DNA of 64,000 bases. Origin: Candidatus Daviesbacteria bacterium. Its GTDB lineage: Bacteria > Patescibacteriota > Microgenomatia > Daviesbacterales > UBA10151. The DNA lies in contig JACOXG010000004.1 of the NCBI GenBank assembly GCA_016176405.1, positions 9,082-73,081 of the forward strand. The letters run 5' to 3'. The position numbers were made by a program, and so were the translations under genes. Shown here one piece after another: positions 6,002 through 64,000 of the stretch. The notes beneath the pieces were generated by a model. That model searched no databases and was not told where the DNA came from. It worked only from the letters and a program-made list of their open reading frames with translations. Position 1 is the stretch's first letter, and each line of letters starts with the position of its first letter.

Positions 6002-7515
6002 ATGGTTGAAGTTCTGCCCATTAGAATTTTAAGAGAAGAAGATGGACCTATTTTTGGAAAAGAGGGTGTGGCTCTGGGGAAACTTGACAGAGCCGGTATA
6101 CCGGTAGCATCAGGATTGGTGATAACTGCTCCCCATCTTAAGCTGAGAGTTATTTTAGAGCATCATGATTTTGGATCCAAAGAAGTTTTTGAGCAGTCCC
6201 TAACCTTAGTTAAAAAAGAAATAGAAAAAATTCCCATTCCTGAAGTTTTAGAGCGGGAAGTTGGTCAACACACTCACTTTTGGCTGGCAGATTCTCAAAT
6301 TAAATCAGTTAAAAAACTTTGGTTAAGTTTACTGTTTATTTGGATAGAAGAAATTAAAAATAGACTCTGGCAGGACGGATTTTACCAGGGGATCACGGAT
6401 GGATTGGAATCACAAACGGTGATTTTTGTTAAAAAAATAGAGGGATGGATTGGAATCACAAACGGTGATTTTTGTTAAAAAAATAGAGGCCTGGGGAAAT
6501 GCCTATTTTGATCCCATTCAAGATGAGGTGGTAGTTCATATAAAGCAGGATAAACTTCATCCAAATGATTTGGAAAAGTTGCAAGAAATGGTCAGGCTGG
6601 CCAATAAGAAACTATTTATTCCGCACCAATATGATTGGATTTTAGATAAAGGATTAAAGATCGTTGGAATAAAACCGTTCACACCACCCTTTACTTCACA
6701 TCTATCTGATTTGGTAATTCCTGGCATGTCTACTTATCCCATACAAATAACCCCACTTCATGGGAACGGCATGGGTAAAGAGGCAAAAAGAAGTGTGGTT
6801 AAGGTTTTTTTGGATTTATCAGATGGACTAATCATTGAAAGGGAGGCTGATGGAGTCTATATTGCCGCGGAGAAAATTTTTGATTTAAACAAACCCCGAG
6901 ATTCTTTCGAAGATTTGGTTTTCAGAGTAGTTGAGGCGGCTGTAACTTTTCCCAATAGTCAGATACTTTTTAAATTGGCAGATATGTCAGAAGGAATGGG
7001 AAAGGTAAGAGGTACCTTAAGACTGTTGCATCAAAAAAGTTTATTGGAGCCGCTGATTTGTCAGAGGAGTAGGGGAACTCGTAAAAATCAAACAAGAGTT
7101 ATCTATTAAGAAATTAAAACGCCAAGCCTCTTTACAGTTTTGGTTGGAAATAGCTGTGCCGGAAAATATTATTAATTTGGAGGATTATTTAATGGTGGGA
7201 ATAGATGGAGTAGTTTTAAATTTGGATGAGTTGATTGCTCATTTTAACGGTTTTGACCAAACGCAAGAAGACTTGGTATTTTACAAAAATGAGGTTTCCG
7301 GATTGCTTAAATTTTTAGAAGATAGCATAAAACTGCTTAATAAATCCAAAATTCCTTTTATAGCCTATGGATCTTTAAGCCAATACCAAAAAGTTTTGGA
7401 ATTTTTGGTGGAAAAAGGAGTATATGGAGTGGTGGTGGAAAGATATGAAGTCCCTTCAGCCAAAGATTTGTTGTACCAGACAGAAAAAAGGATGATTTTA
7501 AGAAAATCCTCCTAA
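6002..7515 (+). pseudogene. PEP-utilizing enzyme-like gene (PEP synthase/PPDK-type N-terminal PEP/pyruvate-binding domain + C-terminal TIM-barrel-like domain) broken into three ORFs (6002-6478, 6450-7109, 7144-7515)
   Basis: N-terminal GKEGVALGKL...GIPVASGLVIT resembles the ATP-grasp nucleotide-binding region of PEP synthase; first break coincides with a 46-bp tandem duplication (not a multiple of 3); second frame change near 7050-7060. Confidence 0.45.
6398..6489. repeat. Perfect 46-bp tandem duplication (gatggattggaatcacaaacggtgatttttgttaaaaaaatagagg x2) inside the PEP-utilizing-like gene
   Basis: Two identical adjacent copies read directly; creates the frame break between ORFs 6002-6478 and 6450-7109. 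Confidence 0.9.
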
Positions 7516-8882: not shown

Positions 8883-10433
8883 GTGAAACTGTCCATTAAA
8901 TTTGCTGTAATTATTTTTTTCTCTCTGCTGATTACCACCACCTGGTCCAATTTTTTAATCTTTCCTATCATTAATTCATTTATTAGTTCCAGACCAGTTG
9001 ATGACCCGCTGCTTTTGGGATTACTTGATTTAGCCTTGCTGCTCATTTTGGTAGTCGTACCAATGTCTTTGATGACCTATTTTTTACTTTCAAGGATAGT
9101 TATCAAACCGATTTCTTCATTTACTAAAATTGCCAAAATTATTGCCAGCGGCAATTTAGGAACTAGGTTAAAAATTTCTTCCAGAGATGAGATTGGAGAG
9201 TTAGGTATGCATATAAACACCATTATTGAACATCTGGTCAAAGCTTTCCAAAATATGGCTTATTCCTTAAAAGATGAGCGGTTAAAGGAAAGACAGCTGG
9301 CTGAGAGTTTGGAGCAGCTTAGGAAAGAGAAAGCTAAAGATGATGCCCTTCTTTCTAGTATAGGTGATGGGGTGATTGCCATAGATAAAAACCATCGGAT
9401 TATCCTTTTTAACAATGCAGCTAGTCAACTGACAGGATTTGGATTAAGTGAGGTTTTTAGCCTTCCATATCCAAATATTTTAAGAATTGTCAATGAAAAA
9501 GACCAAACTCCAGCAGAAGATTTTATAGGGTTGGTTTTATCAGGAGGAAATAATAAAAAACAAGAACATCTGGCCATTTTAACCAAAGATGGACGGGAGA
9601 TCCCCATCTCATATTCTTTGGGAGTTATTTATGACAGCGACAGGAGGGTGAATGGGGTGGTGGTGGTTTTAAGAGATATTACTCACGAAAGACAACTGGA
9701 TAAAATGAAAGATGAATTTGTCTCCATTGCCTCTCACGAACTGAGAACCCCTATGTCTGCCATCAAAAATTTAATGTCCATGATTTTTGAGGGAGATTTT
9801 GGGGAGGTTAATGAGCAGCTGAAGGACCCTTTAAAAGATGTAGCCATATCAACAGAGCGGCTAATTCAGTTGGTTAATGATATGTTGGATGTGTCCAGGC
9901 TGGAAACAGGTAGACTTAAAATTGTTTTAGAAGATGCTCCTTTGGCGGGACTTGTAGATGAGATAGTTAAGCTGATGCAATCTTTGGCTCAAGAAACAGG
10001 CAATCATATTTCGGTGGGATCAATTGATCAGAGTATGGTGAGAACCGATGTTAGTAAATTTAAAGAAATTTTGTCTAATTTAATAGGTAATGCCCTTAAA
10101 TTTACAGATAAAGGGCAAATATCAATTTCTACCAAAAGACAAGGTAGCTATATTTTTGTGTCTGTCTCAGATACAGGGATTGGGATTGCCGAAGAAGATA
10201 AGGCAAAACTGTTTGGTAAGTTTTCCCAAATTGGCACAGGGGCTTTAGTCAGGCCACCTGGTACAGGTTTAGGGCTCTATATTTCTCGTGAATTTGCCAG
10301 AAAAATGGGTGGAGATCTTTGGCTGGAGAGTTCTGGGGAAGGAAAGGGGAGTACTTTTACTTTTTCTGTGCCAGTGGCAGATCAGGCTTCTCAACAATCT
10401 GTAATTGAAGATACCAGTTTTATTCAAGCATAA
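8883..10433 (+). CDS. Sensor histidine kinase (TM, HAMP, PAS, HisKA, HATPase_c); GTG start
   Basis: H-box FVSIASHELRTPMSAI; N/G1/G2 boxes (LIGNALKFT; DTGIGI; GTGLGL); two N-terminal TM segments. Confidence 0.85.
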   Translation: MKLSIKFAVIIFFSLLITTTWSNFLIFPIINSFISSRPVDDPLLLGLLDLALLLILVVVPMSLMTYFLLSRIVIKPISSFTKIAKIIASGNLGTRLKISSRDEIGELGMHINTIIEHLVKAFQNMAYSLKDERLKERQLAESLEQLRKEKAKDDALLSSIGDGVIAIDKNHRIILFNNAASQLTGFGLSEVFSLPYPNILRIVNEKDQTPAEDFIGLVLSGGNNKKQEHLAILTKDGREIPISYSLGVIYDSDRRVNGVVVVLRDITHERQLDKMKDEFVSIASHELRTPMSAIKNLMSMIFEGDFGEVNEQLKDPLKDVAISTERLIQLVNDMLDVSRLETGRLKIVLEDAPLAGLVDEIVKLMQSLAQETGNHISVGSIDQSMVRTDVSKFKEILSNLIGNALKFTDKGQISISTKRQGSYIFVSVSDTGIGIAEEDKAKLFGKFSQIGTGALVRPPGTGLGLYISREFARKMGGDLWLESSGEGKGSTFTFSVPVADQASQQSVIEDTSFIQA

Positions 10434-10460
10434 AATATAATATGATATAAGGGAAATATT

Positions 10461-10829
10461 ATGGCCAAAGTTTTGATTGTTGAAGATGATCCTATCTTGC
10501 TAAAAATCTATCATAAAAAATTTGAGATAGAAGGATTTCAAGTAGAGACTGCCATAGATGGAGAGACAGGACTAACAAAGATAAAAACTATCATGCCAAA
10601 CCTTGTTTTAATGGATATCATGTTGCCTAAGATGAATGGGATTGATGCCATGGAAAAAGCCAAGGCAGATCCACAAACTGCCAACATCCCCTTTTTGATC
10701 TTGACCAATCTGTCTACTTCCTCTGATGCTCAGGAAGCGATGAAAAAAGGAGCAGTGGGATTTTTAGTTAAATCAGCTGTCACCCCTGCTCAGGTGGTTG
10801 CCAAAGTCAAAGAAATTCTCAAAATTTAA
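10461..10829 (+). CDS. Single-domain response regulator (CheY-like receiver)
   Basis: Receiver motifs VLIVEDD..., phospho-acceptor Asp in LVLMDIMLP, conserved T/K positions; no output domain. Confidence 0.85.
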   Translation: MAKVLIVEDDPILLKIYHKKFEIEGFQVETAIDGETGLTKIKTIMPNLVLMDIMLPKMNGIDAMEKAKADPQTANIPFLILTNLSTSSDAQEAMKKGAVGFLVKSAVTPAQVVAKVKEILKI

Positions 10830-20575: not shown

Positions 20576-20594
20576 TATTAAACTACGTTCCCAC

Positions 20595-20656
20595 ATCTCA
20601 AGTGGGAAGCTAGATTGTAAATTCCATCTCAAGTGGGAAGCTAGATTGTAAATTCC
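20595..20656. repeat. 31-bp perfect tandem direct repeat x2 (atctcaagtgggaagctagattgtaaattcc)
   Basis: Two adjacent identical copies with no spacer; overlaps the stop codon of the minus-strand ORF 20641-21297. Confidence 0.9.
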
Positions 20657-21297
20657 GCTAAGAATTCCTCTATTTGTGCTTGAGAGATACCAAGAAGCCT
20701 CAGATCTTTTAGGTCTTTTGGTCTGGGAGGTGCAATGTGTAGAGGTGTACTATGTAAATCAACTGATTTACTAAATGTTAATGCTAGAGCATCAAGAATA
20801 TAGACTGGTCTTCCATTAAATTGTACTGGGGTTGAATGACTAAAAAGAATCCTAATATTAGGTTCACTACCAGGAATTCTACGTGATTCGAGCCAGCGTT
20901 TTGCGCTTTTGGAAGGGGTTCCTGCAAATTTTTTCTCTGTCTCACTATCTTCGCTTCGAAGTACTAAATCTACATCCTCTGGAATTTGTCTTGTAGGTAT
21001 TAATAAATGTACCGCTACCCCACCTTCTATAAGGTATTGTAATTGTCCATTTTCAACTTGTGGAAAAATAGAAATTAAAAGATCTAGAATTTTATCCCAG
21101 GAGGGTTGAGGATTTTCCCTATATAATGCTTCCAATGAAGGATGCCTTGGATAGACTATTATTGGTGGGAGTTCTTTCATAAGTTGAATTATACAATAAT
21201 TCATGCATTTTCTTCGGGTCTTCTTAGTGGTAAAATGGAATTTTGTCCCAACGTCATTCCTGCGAATGCTCGCTTCGCGAAGCGAGCAGGAATCCAA
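20641..21297 (-). CDS. Hypothetical protein, possible nucleotidyltransferase-fold (GG...DVDLV); annotated N-terminus is probably repeat-derived
   Basis: IEGGVAVHLL...EDVDLVL motif; first 30 codons are the reverse-strand translation of palindromic element B, so the real start is probably MNYCII (about 21204). Confidence 0.4.
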   Translation of the reverse strand: MDSCSLREASIRRNDVGTKFHFTTKKTRRKCMNYCIIQLMKELPPIIVYPRHPSLEALYRENPQPSWDKILDLLISIFPQVENGQLQYLIEGGVAVHLLIPTRQIPEDVDLVLRSEDSETEKKFAGTPSKSAKRWLESRRIPGSEPNIRILFSHSTPVQFNGRPVYILDALALTFSKSVDLHSTPLHIAPPRPKDLKDLRLLGISQAQIEEFLAEFTI

Positions 21298-21345
21298 TTA
21301 ATAAAATCACGTTCAGAATTGGATCCCCGCCTACGCGGGGATGAC
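21253..21345. repeat. Palindromic element family B (two hairpins: cattcctgc..gcaggaatg and atccccgc-cta-gcggggat) with an extra nested palindrome (gctcgcttcgcgaagcgagc), 18 bp upstream of the uvrB start
   Basis: Near-identical copy in dinB (63114-63188) and a shorter inverted copy in tkt (46931-46987); translated on the plus strand it gives VIPAN...AGIQ...ELDPRLRGDD, a motif widespread in other bacteria. Confidence 0.8.
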
Positions 21346-21362: not shown

Positions 21363-23375
21363 ATGGCAAAGTTTATGATAGTTTCTGACTTTAAACCTAC
21401 TGGGGATCAGCCACAGGCTATTGAGAAGCTGGTGAGTGGATTAAATAATAATGAGAAACATCAAGTTTTGCTTGGTGTGACAGGTTCTGGAAAAACTTTT
21501 ACCATGGCCAATGTGATCCAAAAAGTCCAAAGGCCTACCTTAGTTATTTCTCATAACAAAACTCTTGCAGGGCAGCTGGCTCAAGAATTCAGGTCCCTTT
21601 TTCCCAACAATGCCGTGGAATATTTCGTTTCATACTATGATTATTACCAGCCCGAGGCTTATGTGCCTCAATCAGATACTTATATAGAAAAAGAGACAGA
21701 AATTAATGAGGAAATTGAAAAATTAAGGCTTTCCACTACTACTTCTTTGATGACCCGAAAAGATGTGATTGTGGTGGCCTCAGTATCCTGTATCTATAAC
21801 TTAGGTTCTCCTGTTGAATATGGCGGAGCTATTTTGGAGCTTAAAGAAGGGGTAAGATCTGGATTCCAATCCATTTTGAAGATGTTACAGAAAATGTATT
21901 ACTTGCGGAATGATTTAGATTTTAGAAGATCTACTTATAGAGTTAGAGGTGATACATTGGATATTTATCCTTCATACGCAGATTCTGCTGTTAGAGTAGA
22001 GTTTTTGGGGGACAAGATTGAAAGAGTATCTCATCTTGATCCTTTAACTGGAACAGTTACACCTACTTCCCAAACTTTGACTATTTTTCCTGCCAAACAC
22101 TACATTACTTCTGAGGCCAGATTTGAAGGAGCTTTAAAACAGATTCAGGAAGATTTGGTGGCCAGATTAAAACAGCTTAGGAAACAGGGAAAACTGTTGG
22201 AAGCTCAAAGATTAGAGCAAAGAACTTATTATGATCTGGAAATGATCAAAGAGTTTGGATATTGTAATGGAATTGAGAATTATTCCAGGTATTTTGATGG
22301 AAGAGCTCCAGGTGAGTCACCTTTTACTTTAATGGAATATTTTCCTAAGGATTTTTTACTAATTATTGATGAATCACACATTACTCTTCCTCAAATTAGG
22401 GGTATGTATAATGGTGACAGATCCAGAAAAGAAACCTTGGTTGAGTTTGGATTTAGGCTTCCCTCAGCTTTAGATAATAGACCGCTAAAATACGAGGAAT
22501 TTCAAAGGAAAATAAATCAAGCTATCTATGTTTCAGCCACTCCTGATGAGTATGAATTGAGTTTGGCTGGGGCTCACCTCCGAGGTGAGGGCAAGGTGAC
22601 ATCTGGCACACACCTCGGAGGTGTGGTGGAACAACTGGTCAGGCCAACAGGGATCGTAGATCCACAAATTTCTGTTAGAGGAACCAAAGGACAAATTGAT
22701 GATGTGATCAAAGAGGTAGAAAAACGCGTGGAACGTGGAGAGCGAGTCTTGATCACTACACTTACCAAAAGAATGGCAGAGGATCTGACTGACTATTTGA
22801 AAGAGAAAGGAATTAAGGTGAACTATTTACATTCAGATATTGAGACATTAAAAAGGTCTGATATTTTACAATCTTTAAGATTAGGGGAATTTGATGTGAT
22901 TGTGGGAATTAATCTTTTAAGAGAAGGTTTAGATTTACCAGAAGTAACTTTAGTCATAATCTTAGATGCTGATAAAGAAGGATTTTTAAGATCAAAAACC
23001 TCACTTATACAAACCATGGGCAGAGCTGCTAGAAATATTGGAGGAGAGGTAATTATGTATGCAGATAATGTGACAAAGTCTATGAAAGCTGCTATAGAGG
23101 AGGTGGATAGAAGAAGACAATACCAGGAGGAATATAATAAAAAACATAAAATAAAACCTAGAAGTATTGAGAAAGCTTTAAGGGAAAGGTTAATTGAGCA
23201 AGTTGAAGAGTTAGAAGAGCAATTGGGTAAAAAAGAGTTAAGAGTGGAGGATATTCCACCAAAAGAAAGAGATAAAATGTTAAGAAATTTAGAAACTCAA
23301 ATGAAACAAGCAGCAGAACTTTTGGATTTTGAGGAAGCAGCAAGACTTAGGGATCAAATTAAGGAGCTAAGTTAG
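21363..23375 (+). CDS. uvrB: Excinuclease ABC subunit B (UvrB), carrying an in-frame 18-aa insertion from a palindromic repeat
   Basis: Walker A GVTGSGKTFT, helicase motifs, beta-hairpin region, C-terminal UvrBC coiled-coil domain (EEAARLRDQIKEL); insertion [18 protein letters not shown] between YELSLAG and VEQLVRPTG. Confidence 0.95.
   Translation: MAKFMIVSDFKPTGDQPQAIEKLVSGLNNNEKHQVLLGVTGSGKTFTMANVIQKVQRPTLVISHNKTLAGQLAQEFRSLFPNNAVEYFVSYYDYYQPEAYVPQSDTYIEKETEINEEIEKLRLSTTTSLMTRKDVIVVASVSCIYNLGSPVEYGGAILELKEGVRSGFQSILKMLQKMYYLRNDLDFRRSTYRVRGDTLDIYPSYADSAVRVEFLGDKIERVSHLDPLTGTVTPTSQTLTIFPAKHYITSEARFEGALKQIQEDLVARLKQLRKQGKLLEAQRLEQRTYYDLEMIKEFGYCNGIENYSRYFDGRAPGESPFTLMEYFPKDFLLIIDESHITLPQIRGMYNGDRSRKETLVEFGFRLPSALDNRPLKYEEFQRKINQAIYVSATPDEYELSLAGAHLRGEGKVTSGTHLGGVVEQLVRPTGIVDPQISVRGTKGQIDDVIKEVEKRVERGERVLITTLTKRMAEDLTDYLKEKGIKVNYLHSDIETLKRSDILQSLRLGEFDVIVGINLLREGLDLPEVTLVIILDADKEGFLRSKTSLIQTMGRAARNIGGEVIMYADNVTKSMKAAIEEVDRRRQYQEEYNKKHKIKPRSIEKALRERLIEQVEELEEQLGKKELRVEDIPPKERDKMLRNLETQMKQAAELLDFEEAARLRDQIKELS
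22575..22623. repeat. REPIN-like element family A (cacctcCgaggtg - 23 bp - cacctcGgaggtg) inserted in-frame in uvrB
   Basis: Two 13-bp palindromes in inverted orientation; same arms at 25176-25224 (uvrA), 63728-63777 (dinB) and related palindromes flanking the HuH transposase gene at 48785-48809/49524-49543. Confidence 0.85.
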
Positions 23376-23825: not shown

Positions 23826-25532
23826 TTGACAAAATTATTATCAAAGGTGCTCGTGAGCACAATCTTGGCTTTTGATACCCTATATGCTGAGGGGCAGAGA
23901 AGATATGTTGAATCCCTTTCTGCTTATGCCAGGCAGTTTTTGGGGGTCATGGATAAGCCTGATGTAGATTTAATTGAAGGATTATCTCCTGCTATTTCTA
24001 TTGATCAAAAAGGAGTTTCACACAATCCCAGATCTACTGTTGGAACAACTACTGAAATTTATGATTACTTAAGGCTACTTTTTGCCAGAATTGGCCATCC
24101 TCATTGTCCTATTTGTGGCAGGGAAATTAGTAGGATGAGTGTGGAACAGATTGTGGAAATAGTCATCAGTAGTCAGTCATCAGCTATCAGCAAGAAGGGG
24201 AGAAGAATCATGGTTTTGGCTCCTGTTGTTAAAGATAGAAAAGGGGAGTACTCCTCGCTTTTTGAAGATTTAAGAAAGAAAGGTTTTTCTAAAGCCAGAG
24301 TTGATGGGCAGATTAGGGATTTGAGTGAGGATTTTGTATTGATTAAAACTAATAAGCACACTATTGATGTCGTAGTTGATCGGCTCGTGTTAGAGTCTAG
24401 AGTCAAGAATCTAGAATCTAGTGAGACACAATATAGACTCTCGACTCTAGCGACTAGACTCTCACAAAGTATTGAAACAGCAGTTAAATTAGGTGAAGGA
24501 TCTGTAATAGTTTCTGATGTTTTAGATGCTTCTTTAGAATTTCCCCAGAGCCCTAAAAAAATGGAAGATCACCTATACTCTGAAAGATTTGCCTGTCCTG
24601 TTGACAATATAGCTCTATCTGAGGTTGAGCCCAGATTATTTTCTTTTAATTCCCCCCACGGAGCTTGTCCAACATGCTCCGGATTAGGTTCTCTTTTAGA
24701 GATTGATCCGGAAATGGTCTTAAACCCAATTTTATCCATTGCTGAGGGTGGAATTTTACCCTGGCAAAAATTAGCCACTCATGAAACCTGGTTTTCCAGG
24801 CTAATTGAGGCAGTGGGTAAGGAATATGGCTTTGACTTAAACACCAGATTAGGACAGCTTTCAGATGAGGCTAAAAAAGTGCTTCTACATGGTTCAGGAG
24901 ACGATGAATTCAGAGTGGAAGGTAGAAATAGACAAGGCAGATGGACCTCATTTTATTCTGAATTTCAAGGCTTAGTTCCATATTTAAAGCAAAGATACCA
25001 AGAATCTGAATCAGATTATGTCAGAGCAGAAATTGAAAAATATATGTATAAAGAAACATGTCCCAAATGTAAAGGGGCTAGGCTTAAAGATGAGGCTTTA
25101 TCAATCACCATTGATGGTTTAAATATTGCTGAGGTGACCACCCAATCTATCAACGAAGCTTTAGATTGGATTGCTCACCTCCGAGGTGAGGGCAAGGTGA
25201 TGTCTGGATCACACCTCGGAGGTGTACTCTCGGAACGAGAATGGCAAATTGCCACCTCAATTGTCAAAGAAATTAAAGCTAGATCACAGTTTTTGATTGA
25301 TGTAGGTTTAGATTATTTAACTTTAGATAGACCCTCTATGACTTTGGCAGGAGGGGAGTCACAAAGGATCAGATTGGCCTCTCAAATTGGTTCAGGGTTA
25401 TCTGGAGTTTTATATGTTTTAGATGAACCCTCAATTGGTTTACATCAAAGGGATAATGCCAGGTTGATTGATACTTTAAAGAGACTGCGGGATTTGGGAC
25501 GGAGGGAAAATTGTCGATACTGGAACCCCTGA
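23826..25532 (+). CDS. uvrA: Excinuclease ABC subunit A (UvrA), N-terminal/central segment; gene appears disrupted
   Basis: [26 protein letters not shown], zinc-finger Cys pairs, ABC signature [12 protein letters not shown]; a separate upstream start [16 protein letters not shown] (23819) is in another frame and the NBD-I Walker A segment is absent; contains three repeat-derived in-frame insertions. Confidence 0.85.
24391..24463. repeat. Palindromic element family C (tagagtctagagtc...agactctcgactctagcgactagactct) inserted in-frame in uvrA
   Basis: Related copy at 52335-52401 (intergenic in the MacAB-like operon); encodes [24 protein letters not shown]. Confidence 0.7.
25176..25224. repeat. 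REPIN-like element family A inserted in-frame in uvrA (encodes [18 protein letters not shown])
   Basis: Same 13-bp inverted palindromic arms as the uvrB copy; spacer differs at a few positions. Confidence 0.85.
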
Positions 25533-46070: not shown

Positions 46071-47567
46071 TTTCGGACAATGAATAATCTAAGAGAGCTA
46101 GCTAAGCTAGTTAGGTACTTTATCTTAATTTCCACCACTGAGGCAGGGTCTGGGCATCCTACCTCATCTCTATCCGCCACCGACTTGATGGTGGCTCTTT
46201 TTTTTGGAGGATTTCTTCATTTTGATTTGAAAAATATAGATAATGCCAATAATGATCGTTTAATTTTCTCTAAAGGTCACGCCTCCCCTCTTTTCTACTC
46301 AATTTATGGGGCAGCCGGTGCAGTTTCTGAAAAGGAGCTTCTGACTCTGAGAAAGTTTGACAGTCCATTAGAGGGGCATCCTTCCACGGAGTTTCCCTTT
46401 ACCGAGGTTCCCACAGGATCTTTGGGTCAAGGTTTATCTGTTGGAGTTGGTATGGCTATTAATGCTAAATATCTGGATAAATTGGGATATAAAACTTTTG
46501 TACTATTGGGTGATTCTGAGATGGCAGAAGGATCTGTTTGGGAGGCAATTCAGCTGGCAGCATTTTACAAATTGGACAATTTGGTGGCAATTTTGGATGT
46601 GAACAGATTGGGACAAAGAGGGCAGACTATGTATGGACATGATGTTAAAGCATATCAGCAAAGAGTTTCCAGTTTTAGTTGGAAAACTATTGTAATTGAT
46701 GGACATAATTTGGCTCAGATTAAAAGGGCGTATCAGCGAGCCTTAAAGACTAAAAATGTCCCTACTATGATTATTGCTAAAACTATTAAAGGTAAAGGAT
46801 TTTCAATTTGGGAGGATAAAGATGGTTGGCATGGGAAGGCACTTCCTAAGGAGGATTTGGAAAGGGCTTTGAAGGAATTGGGTTATATAAATAAGAAACT
46901 TCGTGGAAAACTCAGCTTACCCACAAAGTCATCCCCGCTTTCGCGGGGATCCATAAATAATTGGATTCCTGCCTCCGCAGGAATGACAAACTATTCCCAA
47001 GGTGACATGGTGGCAACAAGAAAGGCCTATGGTAATGCTTTAGTAAGGCTTGCTCCCAAATATCCTGATATGGTGGTATTAGATGCCGAGGTGAATAACT
47101 CTACTTATTCAGAATTTTTTGCCCAAAAATTTCCCCAAAAATATTTTGAGATGTTTATTGCTGAACAAAATATGGTGGGAGTGGCTTTGGGACTTTCAAG
47201 GCGGGGCAAAATGCCTTTTATCTCCACCTTCGCCGCCTTTTTAACTAGAGCTTTCGATCAAATCAGAATGGCTCAGTATGCCAAAACTAATATTAAGTTT
47301 TGTGGTTCTCATGCAGGAGTTTCCATAGGGGAAGATGGGCCCTCTCAGATGGGATTAGAAGACATTGCCATGTTTAGGACAATTATGGGTAGTGTGGTGT
47401 TGTATCCTTCTGATGCTGTCTCTTGCGAAAAATTGGTGGAAGAGGCTGCAAAGCATTATGGCATGGTTTATATTAGAACCACCAGAAAAGATACACCTGT
47501 TATTTATTCTAATAATGAGCAATTCAAAGTGATCATGACCAGGTTACTATTTTGGGAGCAGGGATAA
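46062..47567 (+). CDS. tkt: Transketolase (N-terminal TPP-binding + pyrimidine-binding domains), with an in-frame repeat insertion and a 3' frameshift
   Basis: TPP motifs GSGHPTSSLS, GDSEMAEGSVWEA; 19-aa insertion SSPLSRGSINNWIPASAGM from palindromic element B; frame changes around 47527-47545 into ORF 47552-47896. Confidence 0.85.
   Translation: MIQFRTMNNLRELAKLVRYFILISTTEAGSGHPTSSLSATDLMVALFFGGFLHFDLKNIDNANNDRLIFSKGHASPLFYSIYGAAGAVSEKELLTLRKFDSPLEGHPSTEFPFTEVPTGSLGQGLSVGVGMAINAKYLDKLGYKTFVLLGDSEMAEGSVWEAIQLAAFYKLDNLVAILDVNRLGQRGQTMYGHDVKAYQQRVSSFSWKTIVIDGHNLAQIKRAYQRALKTKNVPTMIIAKTIKGKGFSIWEDKDGWHGKALPKEDLERALKELGYINKKLRGKLSLPTKSSPLSRGSINNWIPASAGMTNYSQGDMVATRKAYGNALVRLAPKYPDMVVLDAEVNNSTYSEFFAQKFPQKYFEMFIAEQNMVGVALGLSRRGKMPFISTFAAFLTRAFDQIRMAQYAKTNIKFCGSHAGVSIGEDGPSQMGLEDIAMFRTIMGSVVLYPSDAVSCEKLVEEAAKHYGMVYIRTTRKDTPVIYSNNEQFKVIMTRLLFWEQG
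46931..46987. repeat. Palindromic element family B (short form, inverted orientation) inserted in-frame in tkt
   Basis: atccccgc-tttc-gcggggat hairpin plus cattcctgc-ctcc-gcaggaatg hairpin; 57 bp = 19 codons. Confidence 0.8.
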
Positions 47568-48784: not shown

Positions 48785-48809
48785 CATTCCTACCTCGGAG
48801 GTAGGAATG
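48785..48809. repeat. REP-like perfect palindrome (cattcctacctc-g-gaggtaggaatg) 3' of tal and flanking the HuH transposase gene
   Basis: 25-bp palindrome whose core acctcNgaggt matches family A arms; followed by a T-run, so it may also terminate tal. Confidence 0.8.
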
Positions 48810-48840: not shown

Positions 48841-49518
48841 TTATTCAAGAAGCTTATGTTTAATTAATTCAAGCTTTCTAGCATAATCTACTTGATCTAG
48901 TACAAATTGTTCATATCTTTTGGAATTTTTAAATAATGAGATAACAACTTCCTTATTGCAAATTTTATCTTCTTGTAATTCAAGATAGGATACATATGAT
49001 GACCAAGGATAGTCTCTTAAGTTTTTAACTAAATAGGAAGCAATTGGGTTTAGGTGTATATATCGTGATAAATGTATCAATTGTTCATCTGATTCCACTC
49101 TGACAGCCTTAAATTGTCCTTGGAAGAGTGGCCCAACGCGCTCATGACGTGTATTAAAGTACTTAGTATAGCTGTTAGAAACCTTATTAATGAATTCAGA
49201 GATTCCCTTTTCTTCGAGCTGCCGCAACATAAAGTGATAATGGTTAGGCATTAGGCAATAGCAAATTATTTCCACAATTCTTTTGTTCTTCTCATACTCA
49301 AAATCCTTAAAACGATTTAACTGAGAAAATTGAGGTTTGGGTCCCTGGAATTGGTAATAGTAGATCGTCTCTAAGAATCGATTGTAATCTCTTCGATCAT
49401 CAAATACCGGCATCTTTGCCACTCCACGATTAAAAACATGGTAGACTTGGCCAGTGGCCAATGGAATTATTCGATAGGGCATAAATTCTACTAAACCACA
49501 TATTACCCAAGGTGTCAA
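48841..49518 (-). mobile_element. IS200/IS605-type HuH tyrosine transposase, probable REP-associated tyrosine transposase (RAYT)
   Basis: HuH motif LMPNHYHFM, catalytic Tyr region LSRYIHLNPIASYLV (compare E. coli RAYT YIYINPVKHGWV); flanked on both sides by REP-like palindromes of the same family dispersed in the window. Confidence 0.75.
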
Positions 49519-49523
49519 TACAT

Positions 49524-49543
49524 TTCCACCTCGGAGGTAGGAG
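49524..49543. repeat. REP-like palindrome (ttccacctc-g-gaggtaggag) immediately 5' of the HuH transposase gene
   Basis: Matches the left-flank palindrome and family A arms. Confidence 0.8.
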
Positions 49544-49586
49544 TAAGTTTGGAGTATTGTATACTTAATAAATCTAACTAGAGCTT

Positions 49587-52334: not shown

Positions 52335-52401
52335 GACTAGAGTCGAGAGTCAAGAGTCTAGATTTGTTTTCCTAGACTCTAGATTCTAGCGACTAGACTC
52401 T
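52335..52401. repeat. Palindromic element family C between the MacB-like permease and ATPase genes
   Basis: gactagagtcgagagtcaagagtctag ... ctagactctagattctagcgactagactct; related to the insertion in uvrA. Confidence 0.7.
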
Positions 52402-53063
52402 ATTCTCCCATCCTTCAGCCTAATAATCCTCTTGGCATGTTTGGCAATATTTGCTTCATGTGTAATCATAATAATAGTTTTGCCTTCCCAATTTAGTTTT
52501 TGGAAAATTTTGATAATTTCCTCACCCGATTTAGTATCCAAATTTCCGGTTGGCTCATCTGCTAGAATAAGTTCAGGATTATTAACTAAGGCTCTGGCAA
52601 TGGCCACTCTTTGTTGCTGACCACCTGAGAGTTGATTAGGATGAGATTGCAGCTTGTCTGCCAGCCCCACCTCATCTAATGCCTGTTTTGCTCTTTGCAG
52701 TCTCTCTGGTTTGCTCACTCCCGCATAAATCAAAGGTATGGACACATTATCCAAGGCAGAGGTTCTGGGTAAAAGATTGAAAGATTGAAAAACAAAGCCA
52801 ATTTTTTGATTTCTAATTTCTGCTAATCTTTCTTCTTGGAGATGAGCTGTGTTTTGTCCATCAAGTTCATATATTCCTGAAGTTGGATGATCTAACAGCC
52901 CAATAATATTCATTAAAGTGGATTTGCCGGAACCGGAAGCGCCTATGATGGCTATGTATTCACCTTTTTTGACCACTAAATTAATACCTGCTAGGGCTTT
53001 CAGAGAAACTTCACCGCTGACATAGATTTTGTTTATATTGGTTAGTTTAACTAGGGTGCTCAT
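52386..53063 (-). CDS. ABC transporter ATP-binding protein (MacB/LolD-type)
   Basis: Walker A GASGSGKST, signature LSGGQQQRVAIA, Walker B ILADEPTGNLD, H-loop ITHE. Confidence 0.9.
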   Translation of the reverse strand: MSTLVKLTNINKIYVSGEVSLKALAGINLVVKKGEYIAIIGASGSGKSTLMNIIGLLDHPTSGIYELDGQNTAHLQEERLAEIRNQKIGFVFQSFNLLPRTSALDNVSIPLIYAGVSKPERLQRAKQALDEVGLADKLQSHPNQLSGGQQQRVAIARALVNNPELILADEPTGNLDTKSGEEIIKIFQKLNWEGKTIIMITHEANIAKHAKRIIRLKDGRIESSR

Positions 53064-62398: not shown

Positions 62399-63113
62399 CA
62401 ACTCTCAGAACCTATTAAAGTTTGGGTATTTTTTGAAAATGGAACTTTAAAGCCTCATTTATTTTTCTGGAATAAAAGACAAATTAAAATAGAAAAAATT
62501 AATTTAGTTCATACCACTAAAAATGGCTCTTCTCCTGCTTATCATTTTTCAGTTTCCTCTAGAGGGAATTTTTACAGACTAGGATTTGATTTATTCACTT
62601 TAAAATGGTTTCTGGAGGCTGTGGAAGAGGGATAGCTGGTTGCTCCTGGGAGCTATGGGTTGATTCTGAAGAAGCAATTTCTCCAGGAAGTGGTCCGTGA
62701 AATATAGAACTACCAAGGGGACACGGCCTCCAAGAGACATCATTAGGTGCGTGGGTTTGGGGTAATTCCTTCTCTACCATGACACGTACAAATTAAAATA
62801 ACTGTTAAATTATGTCAAGAGGGATTTATGAGAACCATTTTACACATTGATTTTAACTCATACTTTGCCTCTGTTGAACAGCAGGCAAATCCACACCTTC
62901 GGGGTAAACCTATTGGGGTAACTGGAGGAGATAGACTAAAGAGGACAGTGATTGGGGCAGCCTCAATTGAGGCCAAAAAGTTTGGGGTAAAAACCAGGAG
63001 ATTCTGATAAGTATTTAGAAACAACCAAGAAATTTATAAATATTTTAAAGGACTTTAGCCCAAATTTGGAGGTGTTCTCTATAGATGAGTGCTTTTTGGA
63101 ATTACCCTTTTCT

Positions 63114-63188
63114 GTCATTCCTGCGAATGCAGGAATCCAATTAAATGAATCACGTTCGGAATTGGATCCCCGCCTACGCGGGGATGAC
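63114..63188. repeat. Palindromic element family B inserted in-frame in dinB (encodes VIPANAGIQLNESRSELDPRLRGDD)
   Basis: Near-identical to the 21253-21345 copy minus its nested palindrome. Confidence 0.85.
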
Positions 63189-63727
63189 TTGGTAAAAGTT
63201 GCCCAAGATATTAAATCTCGTATCCGCTCTGAAATTGGAGAATGGATCAGATGCTCTATAGGTATTTCATATAACAAGCTCATGGCCAAGTTGGCTGGGT
63301 CTTTACAAAAACCGGATGGACTGGTGGTTATTCCAAACCAGAAAGAGGCTATCAAAGTGTTGGATAAGATAGAATTGGATGAAATTTGTGGGATCGGCGG
63401 AAGGATTAAAAAAAGATTAAATAATATGGGAGTGTTCGGTTTTAAACAGCTAAGATATGTACCTCTAGAGGCTCTGCTGGCCTCATTTAAGAGCTATGGA
63501 CAGATTTTATATAACATGGCTCGGGGAATAGATTATTCACCCATCATTCCCTTTTATGAAAAAGGAGAAGTAAAAAGTGTGGGGCATAGACATACCATTG
63601 ATCACGATACAAATGACCCAGCAGAAATAAAGCAAATTCTTTTAAAACTTACAGAACTGGTGGCCAGAAGACTGCGGGCTAAAAAAATGGTAGGGAAAAC
63701 TGTCCATTGTTGGTATCGTCAGGCATT

Positions 63728-63777
63728 CCACCTCCGAGGTGAACCCAGTATTTCAACTAGTGCACACCTCGGAGGTG
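63728..63777. repeat. REPIN-like element family A inserted in-frame in dinB (encodes HLRGEPSISTSAHLGGV)
   Basis: ccacctcCgaggtg - 23 bp - cacctcGgaggtg. Confidence 0.85.
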
Positions 63778-64000
63778 TATTTTCGGGAGATGGGATGCAG
63801 ATGACTATCTCTTACAGCAATGATGGATTGGCAATCTTCCATGCAGCCTGGAAAATTTTCCAGAAACTGTGGAATGAAGACAAGATTAGAATGGTTGGTG
63901 TATCCATATCTAACCTCAAATCCCAAAATCCTCAGAATCTATCATTACTTGAAGATTTTTTAACTCAGGAAAAAATTATTCAAACCATGGATAAAATTAA

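Follow-up and report, generated by a model that had tools for sequence, protein, structure and literature searches.

A CGTC-1-type double-hairpin repeat inside and beside genes of Candidatus Daviesbacteria

Just upstream of uvrB, a 64,000-nt stretch of Candidatus Daviesbacteria DNA (contig JACOXG010000004.1; the whole stretch is called the window below, GC ~37%) carries a 93-bp element built of two different hairpins, shorter forms of which lie in frame within tkt and dinB. What is this element, how did it come to be part of conserved reading frames, and why are its hairpins intact? Judged by its sequence, it belongs, as a head-to-head heterodimer, to CGTC-1, a published family of repetitive extragenic palindromes (REPs; Di Nocera, De Gregorio & Rocco 2013, BMC Genomics 14:522, PMC3733652). 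We consider it probable that this is a non-autonomous selfish palindromic heterodimer, copied within Daviesbacteria genomes, tolerated in frame and presumably read through.

The repeat unit and its family

Three sites had been proposed in the first-pass annotation, which named the element family B, and all three were recovered, including the in-frame placement of the copies in tkt and dinB (these genes, like uvrB, tal and uvrA, were identified by Pfam). The limits of each copy were set by the terminal GTCAT...ATGAC:

21253..21345, plus strand: family-B copy 1, a 93-bp CGTC-1-type head-to-head heterodimer 5' of uvrB, with the C of its outer CGTC tag just before the limit
21256-21263 and 21286-21293: stems of hairpin 1 of copy 1, loop GAAT
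21323-21342: hairpin 2 of copy 1
21268..21287: nested palindrome GCTCGCTTCGCGAAGCGAGC, 20 nt, inside hairpin 1 of the uvrB copy
46928..46987, minus strand: family-B copy 2, a 60-bp short form with an 8-nt spacer, in frame in tkt, antisense, encoding SSPLSRGSINNWIPASAGMT
63114..63188, plus strand: family-B copy 3, the canonical 75-bp form, in frame in dinB, encoding VIPANAGIQLNESRSELDPRLRGDD

With these limits the tkt copy remains inverted and short, as first described, while its start moves from 46931 to 46928, and the copy 5' of uvrB ends 17 nt, not 18 bp, before the ATG at 21363. The two hairpins, first written cattcctgc/gcaggaatg and atccccgc/gcggggat, also stand, but the first stem has 8 bp (ATTCCTGC/GCAGGAAT) and not 9, because its outer C and G belong to the GTCAT/ATGAC complementarity of the whole element.

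The patterns ATCCCCGC-N3-6-GCGGGGAT and ATTCCTGC-N-GCAGGAAT each occur three times in the window, against 0.00 expected from 100 dinucleotide-preserving shuffles, and the folding check suggested together with the first description found all three copies far more stable than their shuffles (z -5.1 to -6.3). Aligned with one another, the copies stay in register, and their hairpins, tails and termini do not vary. Rfam at gathering thresholds identified five tRNAs in the whole window and no other family. A chance origin of the repeat was considered and rejected.

The unit reads (C/T)GTC-ATTCCTGC-GAAT-GCAGGAAT-CCA, a spacer ATT...AAT, and TGG-ATCCCCGC-CTAC-GCGGGGAT-GAC, i.e. two hairpins that are related variants of each other in inverted orientation, each with an 8-bp stem, a 4-nt loop, an outer (C/T)GTC tag and an inner CCA tail. 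Both stems are present in all three window copies; the tails GCAGGAAT-CCA and TGG-ATCCCCGC occur in every copy, and the tags lie outside in all of them. The loops are GAAT, CTAC, GGAG and TTTC, with the exception of hairpin 1 of the uvrB copy, whose loop is enlarged by an 18-bp insert. The tag is CGTC at 21252-21255 and TGTC at 63113-63116, T being the base before GTC in most of the 20 related copies considered below. The tail-to-tail spacer measures 23 nt in the 75-bp and 93-bp forms and 8 nt in the 60-bp tkt form. Complementarity extends beyond the stems to the ends of the spacer (CCAATT/AATTGG) and of the element (GTCAT/ATGAC). The copies are mostly flanked by T before GTCAT and A after ATGAC, with no longer direct repeat; as the comparable empty sites fall in hypervariable linkers, the exact ends of the element cannot be fixed. 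By direct reading, stops interrupt four of the six reading frames of a 75-bp unit, which leaves one stop-free frame per orientation, encoding VIPANAGIQL..S.SELDPRLRGDD one way and SSPRRRGSNSE...FNWIPAFAGMT the other; the window copies encode VIPANAGIQ...LDPRLRGDD and WIPASAGMT.

CGTC REPs have been defined by the tag CGTC (or TGTC/CCTC), by 8-bp stems starting with A-T pairs in families 1 and 2, by 4-nt loops in family 1 and by a 3-nt tail, mostly CCA; they mostly form head-to-head dimers with the tags outside, spaced by 20-100 bp in most cases, and number from tens to thousands of units per genome (PMC3733652). According to the same survey, intragenic CGTC dimers encode 20-30 residues, often in uvrA, uvrB, polA and dnaE2, no REP-associated tyrosine transposase (RAYT) is flanked by CGTC units, and CGTC-1 equals dRS3 of Neisseria and RPE-6 of Rickettsia conorii (RPE, Rickettsia palindromic element). 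Its Additional file 3 gives the CGTC-1 peptides VIPAKAGI, DSRFRGND, SFPRKRES and WIPAFTGMT for R. conorii, with WIPAFAGMT also among the supplement's peptides and SIPAKAGIQTGPSMDSRLRGNA for a PolA-family protein (PMC3733652).

The Daviesbacteria element is assigned to CGTC-1 because it shows every structural feature that defines the family and its encoded peptides match that supplement. Both have the (C/T)GTC tag, the 8-bp AT-starting stem, the 4-nt loop, the CCA tail, dimers (heterodimers included) with the tags outside, spacers with complementary ends, 20-30 residues inside open reading frames (ORFs) and the same peptides (VIPAKAGI, DSRFRGND, WIPAFAGMT); recurrent hosts include uvrA, uvrB, polA and other repair genes, and no dedicated transposase flanks the units. 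The element differs from published members in its host phylum (Patescibacteria, of the candidate phyla radiation or CPR, which is not among the paper's five phyla), in its stems, which are T and C variants (ATTCCTGC, ATCCCCGC) of the common ATTCCCGC, in a unit length almost fixed at 75 bp, in the 8-nt spacer of the tkt form, below the usual 20-100 bp, and in its location, since 16 of 20 sampled copies of the Daviesbacteria subtype lie in frame in genes, whereas most REPs are reported as intergenic (PMC3733652).

The two hairpins with their VIPAxAGIQ and LDxRLRGNDG peptides had been taken for a widespread family, and this holds, the family being CGTC-1. A degenerate doublet pattern matched 26 IMG/VR contigs (46-71% GC), a narrower T/C heterodimer pattern more than 120 metagenome contigs (35-71% GC), and a profile of the encoded peptide 657 proteins, mostly hypothetical ORFs of 33-75 aa, the few named ones coming from the Proteobacteria Sphingomonas, Collimonas, Azospirillum and Lysobacter. 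When the 31-residue dinB segment was run through HMMER against 1.84 billion representatives, most matches were again short spurious ORFs, and a Pfam scan of ten longer peptide-search matches gave nothing informative. The collection of papers that was searched contained nothing that combines RAYTs or REPINs (two inverted REPs plus a spacer as a replicating unit; Bertels & Rainey 2011, PMC3116915) with Patescibacteria, and nothing on in-frame palindromic or RPE-type repeats in the CPR; this is apparently the first notice of a CGTC-1 repeat in this phylum and in the radiation.

Host genes and the history of the copies

A scan of 185,579 species genomes for the exact pattern GCAGGAATCCAATT-N3-33-GGATCCCCGC yielded 15 loci from three Daviesbacteria metagenome-assembled genomes (MAGs), four low-GC MAGs and one Gallionellaceae contig; together with the window and metagenome matches they make up 20 distinct sites of the subtype. 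While the window holds three dimers in 64 kb, the related MAGs have 1-4 exact-pattern matches each. The four low-GC MAGs are titled 'uncultured Gammaproteobacteria', and at least two of them have Daviesbacteria-like genes, so that by sequence these titles are probably wrong. The records in question are L032, L036-L038, L040 and L043 (CAYLXC01, CAYNFQ01, CAYHYM01, CAZJNI01; 36-40% GC), and the protein identity to the window is 73% for dinB of L038 (CAYHYM01) and ~80% for uvrA of L043 (CAZJNI01).

The 20 sites comprise thirteen copies of 75 bp, two of 93, one each of 78, 60 and 74, and two of 71 bp. Sixteen lie in frame inside ORFs of 290-1030 aa and measure, without exception, a whole number of codons; the copies of non-triplet length (71, 71 and 74 bp) are extragenic. 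Thirteen of the in-frame copies are oriented to encode the VIPA-type peptide and three (tkt, L039, L154) the opposite one. Twelve hosts were identified by Pfam or homology: PolA, polyprenyl synthase, a class-I aminoacyl-tRNA synthetase, PurL, Rho, ThyA, UvrA, Tkt, an O-antigen ligase/TPR protein, a methyltransferase and DinB (twice, as orthologues); the hosts without identity are the orthologous pair L040/L045, L042 and L154. A contrast set of 75 other CGTC-1 heterodimers from metagenomes ranges from 54 to 101 bp with length remainders 0/1/2 of 16/27/32, and only 10 of the 75 lie in long open frames, most of those ten with non-triplet lengths and several in GC-rich contigs. Against this background the Daviesbacteria subtype gives the impression of having been filtered for, or adapted to, an intragenic existence, as in Rickettsia.

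At individual genes, copies of family B are gained at some sites and retained at others. Among the 120 closest homologues of the window tkt, only P0274 (99% identical) carries the insert, while relatives at 71-73% identity have an unrelated 14-residue linker instead. In the AlphaFold model of P0274, an intact tkt, the mean predicted local distance difference test (pLDDT) score is 84.5 and the coil formed by residues 290-309 links two confidently modelled domains, PP and Pyr; pLDDT falls below 50 at residues 293-302. In uvrA a 75-bp copy is present in L043 (VVPANAGIQLINSRSKLDPRLRGDD), where the window gene has its native linker. In both conserved genes the palindrome is thus in frame yet absent from orthologues. 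In dinB, on the other hand, an orthologous 78-bp copy occupies the same site in L038/L058. At window positions 6716-6778, where the L042 orthologue has a 75-bp copy, there is a segment of similar length that starts GTAATTCCTG (VIPGMSTYPIQ...); it may be a decayed family-B copy, with a similarity to the element that is not significant (336 of 2000 shuffles score equally well).

Other inserts were seen in the same genes. The tkt linker of other CPR lineages (P0320, P0333, P0341/P0343/P0346/P0391, P0355) holds, by eye, other palindromic-repeat-like peptides, which in the alignment to window 46900-47000 read VIANEVKQS...IASSSPSASPRNDK, SPLAKGRIKGG and VILASETRPESSRDSG...SFPRMT; these sequences suggest that this inter-domain linker is a recurrent insertion hot spot. 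The uvrA of L043 (2666-5755) contains three different in-frame inserts, of family A (described below), of family B and of a VIPSERSSRGNL...VAPRNDI type. The dinB of L038 contains, at ORF residues ~50-65, a MPASPDERASRGGE segment that the window dinB lacks, possibly another small in-frame repeat.

The 93-bp form is the 75-bp unit with an 18-bp palindromic insert in hairpin 1. In the uvrB copy the net 18-bp (6-codon) insert sits between the loop and the 3' arm, and in the polA copy of L032, by direct reading, the identical 18 bp separate the 5' arm from the loop, i.e. they occupy the mirror-image position. As the stem is a palindrome, both positions directly follow ATTCCTGC, on opposite strands. 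The first-pass annotation was right about the nested palindrome and too modest in remarking on a single such copy. On sequence, the mirrored placement speaks for two events at one target motif, or for some templated process, rather than for inheritance of one variant. That the palindrome is a nano-element able to insert on its own and directed at these hairpins is a bolder and rather improbable reading. Outside the element, GCTCGCTTCGCGAAGCGAGC was found neither elsewhere in the window, where it is unique, nor in 166 loci or IMG/VR. Other CGTC-1 hairpins from metagenomes repeatedly have enlarged loops with a stem-loop inside, and atypical loops were also noted among CGTC REPs (PMC3733652).

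The copy upstream of uvrB is the rarer, extragenic case and is most likely part of the 5' leader of the gene. A minus-strand ORF without a family (20641-21297) seems to overlap its left part, but the true start of that ORF is more plausibly an internal Met near 21180-21205, which places the copy within a 157-bp gap between the divergent ORF and uvrB. A GGAAG ribosome-binding-like motif follows 5 nt past the end of the copy. An extended -10-like TGgTAAAAT, noticed by eye at 21228-21236, would put the whole element in the leader; the promoter/terminator scan around the copy gave no consensus promoter upstream of the element.

Spread, tolerance and the intact hairpins

We picture the element as a small non-autonomous piece of selfish palindromic DNA that would be copied to new sites within Daviesbacteria genomes, a trans-acting HuH/Y1 enzyme recognising and cleaving its hairpins in single-stranded DNA, if the analogy with REP/RAYT and IS200/IS605 holds. 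Because these genomes are gene-dense, insertions would mostly land in genes; and as the 25-codon unit has one stop-free frame per orientation, copies would persist where they add a loop of 20-31 residues to a tolerant linker or to a surface loop, with the ribosome reading through them. The uvrB copy would be transcribed as part of the leader. The family-B copies are compatible with translation, in one frame per orientation, and sit in linkers.

Several points speak against this account. The examined sites gave no sign of a transposition event, of an excision product or of a target-site duplication, no cognate transposase was found from the RAYT flanks in the window, L001-L005, L043 and L051, and translation of the in-frame insert is deduced from sequence alone. 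The net gain of length amounts to 6 residues in tkt and 16 in uvrA, not 20 and 25, which means that some native linker was lost or that these linkers are variable anyway; the insertion history at the two variable linkers is not simple. Finally, two orthologous pairs (dinB of the window and L038, and the conserved ORF of L040 and L045) are identical at 31 of 31 positions of the left arm and 28-29 of 30 of the right, loops included, although the flanking coding DNA is only 65-78% identical and the centre of the spacer diverges as well; at the flank rate ~16 differences would be expected in the 61 nt of the hairpins, with the qualification that copies were found by exact-match scans, whose ascertainment favours intact ones. 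Such identity against diverged flanks is unexpected for neutral junk and points either to selection on the hairpins themselves or to ongoing homogenisation.

Should the constraint be the host's own, the hairpins would be kept for a function at the level of DNA or RNA, e.g. as a binding or topological site, as a pause site or, in the uvrB leader, for tuning expression or mRNA stability, and mobility would be historical only. This explanation accounts for hairpins that are identical in orthologues down to loops and synonymous positions while flanks and spacer diverge, for the GGAAG motif 5 nt behind the uvrB copy and a -10-like sequence that would put the element in the leader, and for hosts that are repeatedly genes of DNA repair and replication, as PMC3733652 also remarks. 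Yet the host genes are functionally unrelated, presence and absence differ among close relatives (tkt, uvrA), a copy has possibly decayed at the orthologous site 6716-6778 (with the non-significant similarity given above), the window has no Rfam family besides tRNAs and no consensus promoter upstream of the element, and the exact-pattern ascertainment favours intact copies. We hold a host function to be unlikely.

A bolder version of the mobile-element account, which we judge rather improbable, would make the dimer a coding-adapted 25-codon cassette whose hairpins are actively maintained in essential genes by selection or re-copying, with the RAYT-like protein encoded in the window, or another HuH enzyme, as the mobilising enzyme of the CGTC superfamily.

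The neighbouring transposase gene and other repeat systems

The features concerned are:

48841..49518, minus strand: RAYT-like Y1/HuH transposase gene with an HYH motif (the annotated 213-aa product starts at 49482); context, not tied to the element
48785..48809: hairpin CATTCCTACCTCGGAGGTAGGAATG on one side of the RAYT, with ATTCCT/AGGAAT in common with family-B hairpin 1
49520..49545: imperfect hairpin CATTTCCACCTCGGAGGTAGGAG of the same type, on the other side of the RAYT

The ORF matches Pfam Y1_Tnp (E 1.2e-8); its protein scores 62.6 bits against NCBIfam REP_Tyr_transpos, under the 80-bit cut-off, and aligns with E. coli TnpA-REP (4ER8) at E 0.03, HuH and Tyr motifs included. It is 100% identical to an NCBI protein of Candidatus Daviesbacteria and 60-76% identical to many homologues in MAGs and contigs, several of them named Daviesbacteria. 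The gene is single and syntenic in relatives, adjoining pentose-phosphate genes (G6PD, 6PGD, tkt, tal) across Daviesbacteria. RAYTs are typically single-copy and syntenic. In the window and in L001-L005, where the gene lies around 10001-10650, TCCTACCTCSGAGGTAGGA-type hairpins stand on both sides, and the hairpin core of the flanks in the window and the five related loci, CCTACCTC-S-GAGGTAGG, is of the family-A type.

Could this enzyme be the replicase of family B? The element would then be a REPIN, with the RAYT at 48841-49518 reading both A and B hairpins through ATTCCT/AGGAAT and supplying the missing CGTC mobiliser. Family B does have the REPIN layout of two inverted hairpins and a spacer, the tkt copy is 1.8 kb away from a RAYT-like gene that is single-copy and vertically inherited, and the stem at 48785-48809 (ATTCCTAC/GTAGGAAT) differs from that of hairpin 1 (ATTCCTGC/GCAGGAAT) by one compensated base pair over 8. 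It was on this resemblance that the first-pass annotation linked the two families, calling the outer stem cattcct/aggaatg identical in both; what they have in common is ATTCCT/AGGAAT, 6 bp, plus one flanking C that lies outside the stem. The link is not supported by comparison with relatives. The five orthologous RAYT loci have TCCTACCTCCGAGGTAGGA-type hairpins on both sides, conserve only TCCTACCTC-N-GAGGTAGGA and vary in the outer bases (ACTCCT, AATCCT, ACTCCC), which are often unpaired, so that across the clade only TCCT/AGGA is common to these hairpins and family B. The second flank in the window (49520-49545) is already degenerate. The RAYT hairpin further departs from family B in its loop (7 against 4), tag (TATC against C/TGTC) and tail (GAA against CCA), and the 20-kb RAYT loci of relatives contain no family-B copy. 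A cognate RAYT with the same REP flanks was not encountered in the window and L001-L005, whose flanks are ..CCTACCTCSGAGGTAGG.. hairpins, nor do CGTC hairpins stand beside two further RAYT-like genes (L043, L051), which have long inverted repeats or other sequences instead; the published survey agrees, having no CGTC-flanked RAYT (PMC3733652). With six stem base pairs in common, and in this genome alone, the proposed link between A and B is weak, a lead and not a finding, and the RAYT as replicase of family B is improbable.

The RAYT-like gene of L043 (440-1240), a second and distant one (35% identity), has uvrB on one side and uvrA on the other, with long inverted repeats (GCGTATGTTCAGGTGCG...) at its flanks. 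Family A itself is a 53-nt doublet, CACCTCCGAGGTG...CACACCTCGGAGGTGT, found in frame in uvrB (22572-22624), uvrA (25173-25225) and dinB (63726-63778), where it encodes HLRGE...HLGG; in L043 it occupies the identical uvrA position, a further copy lies in PurL of L037, and the hairpin core of family A matches the hairpins flanking the RAYT. Short TAGAGTCTAGAGTC-like repeats, direct and inverted, were noted at 24391-24462 and 52338-52402 (families D5, D13 and I3).

That the encoded peptide (VIPANAGIQL..SELDPRLRGDD) is a module selected for adding function to many proteins, with DNA palindromy secondary, is disfavoured as an origin and very improbable: although the peptide is invariant at 20 of 25 positions over nine host proteins, synonymous sites are conserved as much as non-synonymous ones, the unrelated opposite-strand peptide (SSPRRRGS...WIPAFAGMT) is tolerated too (tkt, L039, L154), the same DNA is also found outside genes, and the tkt insert is modelled as disordered.

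A selfish CGTC-1-type dimer tolerated in frame has its parallel in the Rickettsia palindromic elements, reportedly described by Ogata et al. RPE-1 is longer, about 100-150 bp. Both systems comprise in-frame palindromes in conserved genes of a small-genome bacterium, tolerated in loops, and in both one repeat family occupies genic and intergenic sites, RPE-6 having been equated with CGTC-1 in PMC3733652, which cites the RPE work of Ogata et al. as its refs 13 and 14. They differ in phylum and sequence subtype, and expression was shown experimentally for some RPE-bearing proteins, whereas the Daviesbacteria inserts are known as sequences. With REPIN-RAYT systems the repeat has in common conserved hairpins, a variable spacer and a single-copy, vertically inherited RAYT in the genome; here and in relatives, however, the RAYT is flanked by another hairpin type (the family-A core), the family-B tag is CGTC and not GTAG, and the copies are mostly intragenic. 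Bacterial miniature inverted-repeat transposable elements, e.g. Correia/NEMIS and Nezha (review PMC10969869), are likewise small, dispersed, palindromic and devoid of coding capacity, and can lie in transcripts and occasionally in ORFs, but family B shows no recognisable target-site duplication and no related full-length insertion sequence, and its terminal inverted repeats are the hairpin units themselves.

CPR bacteria have gene-dense genomes of roughly 1 Mb. Protein-invading palindromic repeats of the CGTC/RPE type now extend to this radiation, which suggests that the Rickettsia phenomenon is not peculiar to one lineage. Their in-frame inserts inflate and distort CPR protein alignments, generate spurious 'hypothetical' ORFs and can mislead the annotation of essential genes (PolA, UvrA, Rho, ThyA, tRNA synthetases). 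The distinguishing features of the Daviesbacteria subtype are its fixed 25-codon form, mostly intragenic location, intact orthologous hairpins and mirrored nested insert; a 75-bp unit with both gains and orthologous retention across MAGs is a tractable data set for finding the CGTC mobiliser and the reason for the intact hairpins.

Some irregularities of the window assembly were noted in passing. In tkt, 28 bp are missing at 47525/47526 by comparison with two Logan contigs (L167, L168) that otherwise match at 100% identity; dinB, judged against L038, has a deletion and frameshift near 62995-63007, and uvrA a gap of ~29 residues with a frameshift at ~25499-25501. Two perfect tandem duplications, of 46 bp and 31 bp, occur at 6397-6488 and 20594-20655. 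All of these lesions may have arisen in assembly or may reflect recent pseudogenisation.

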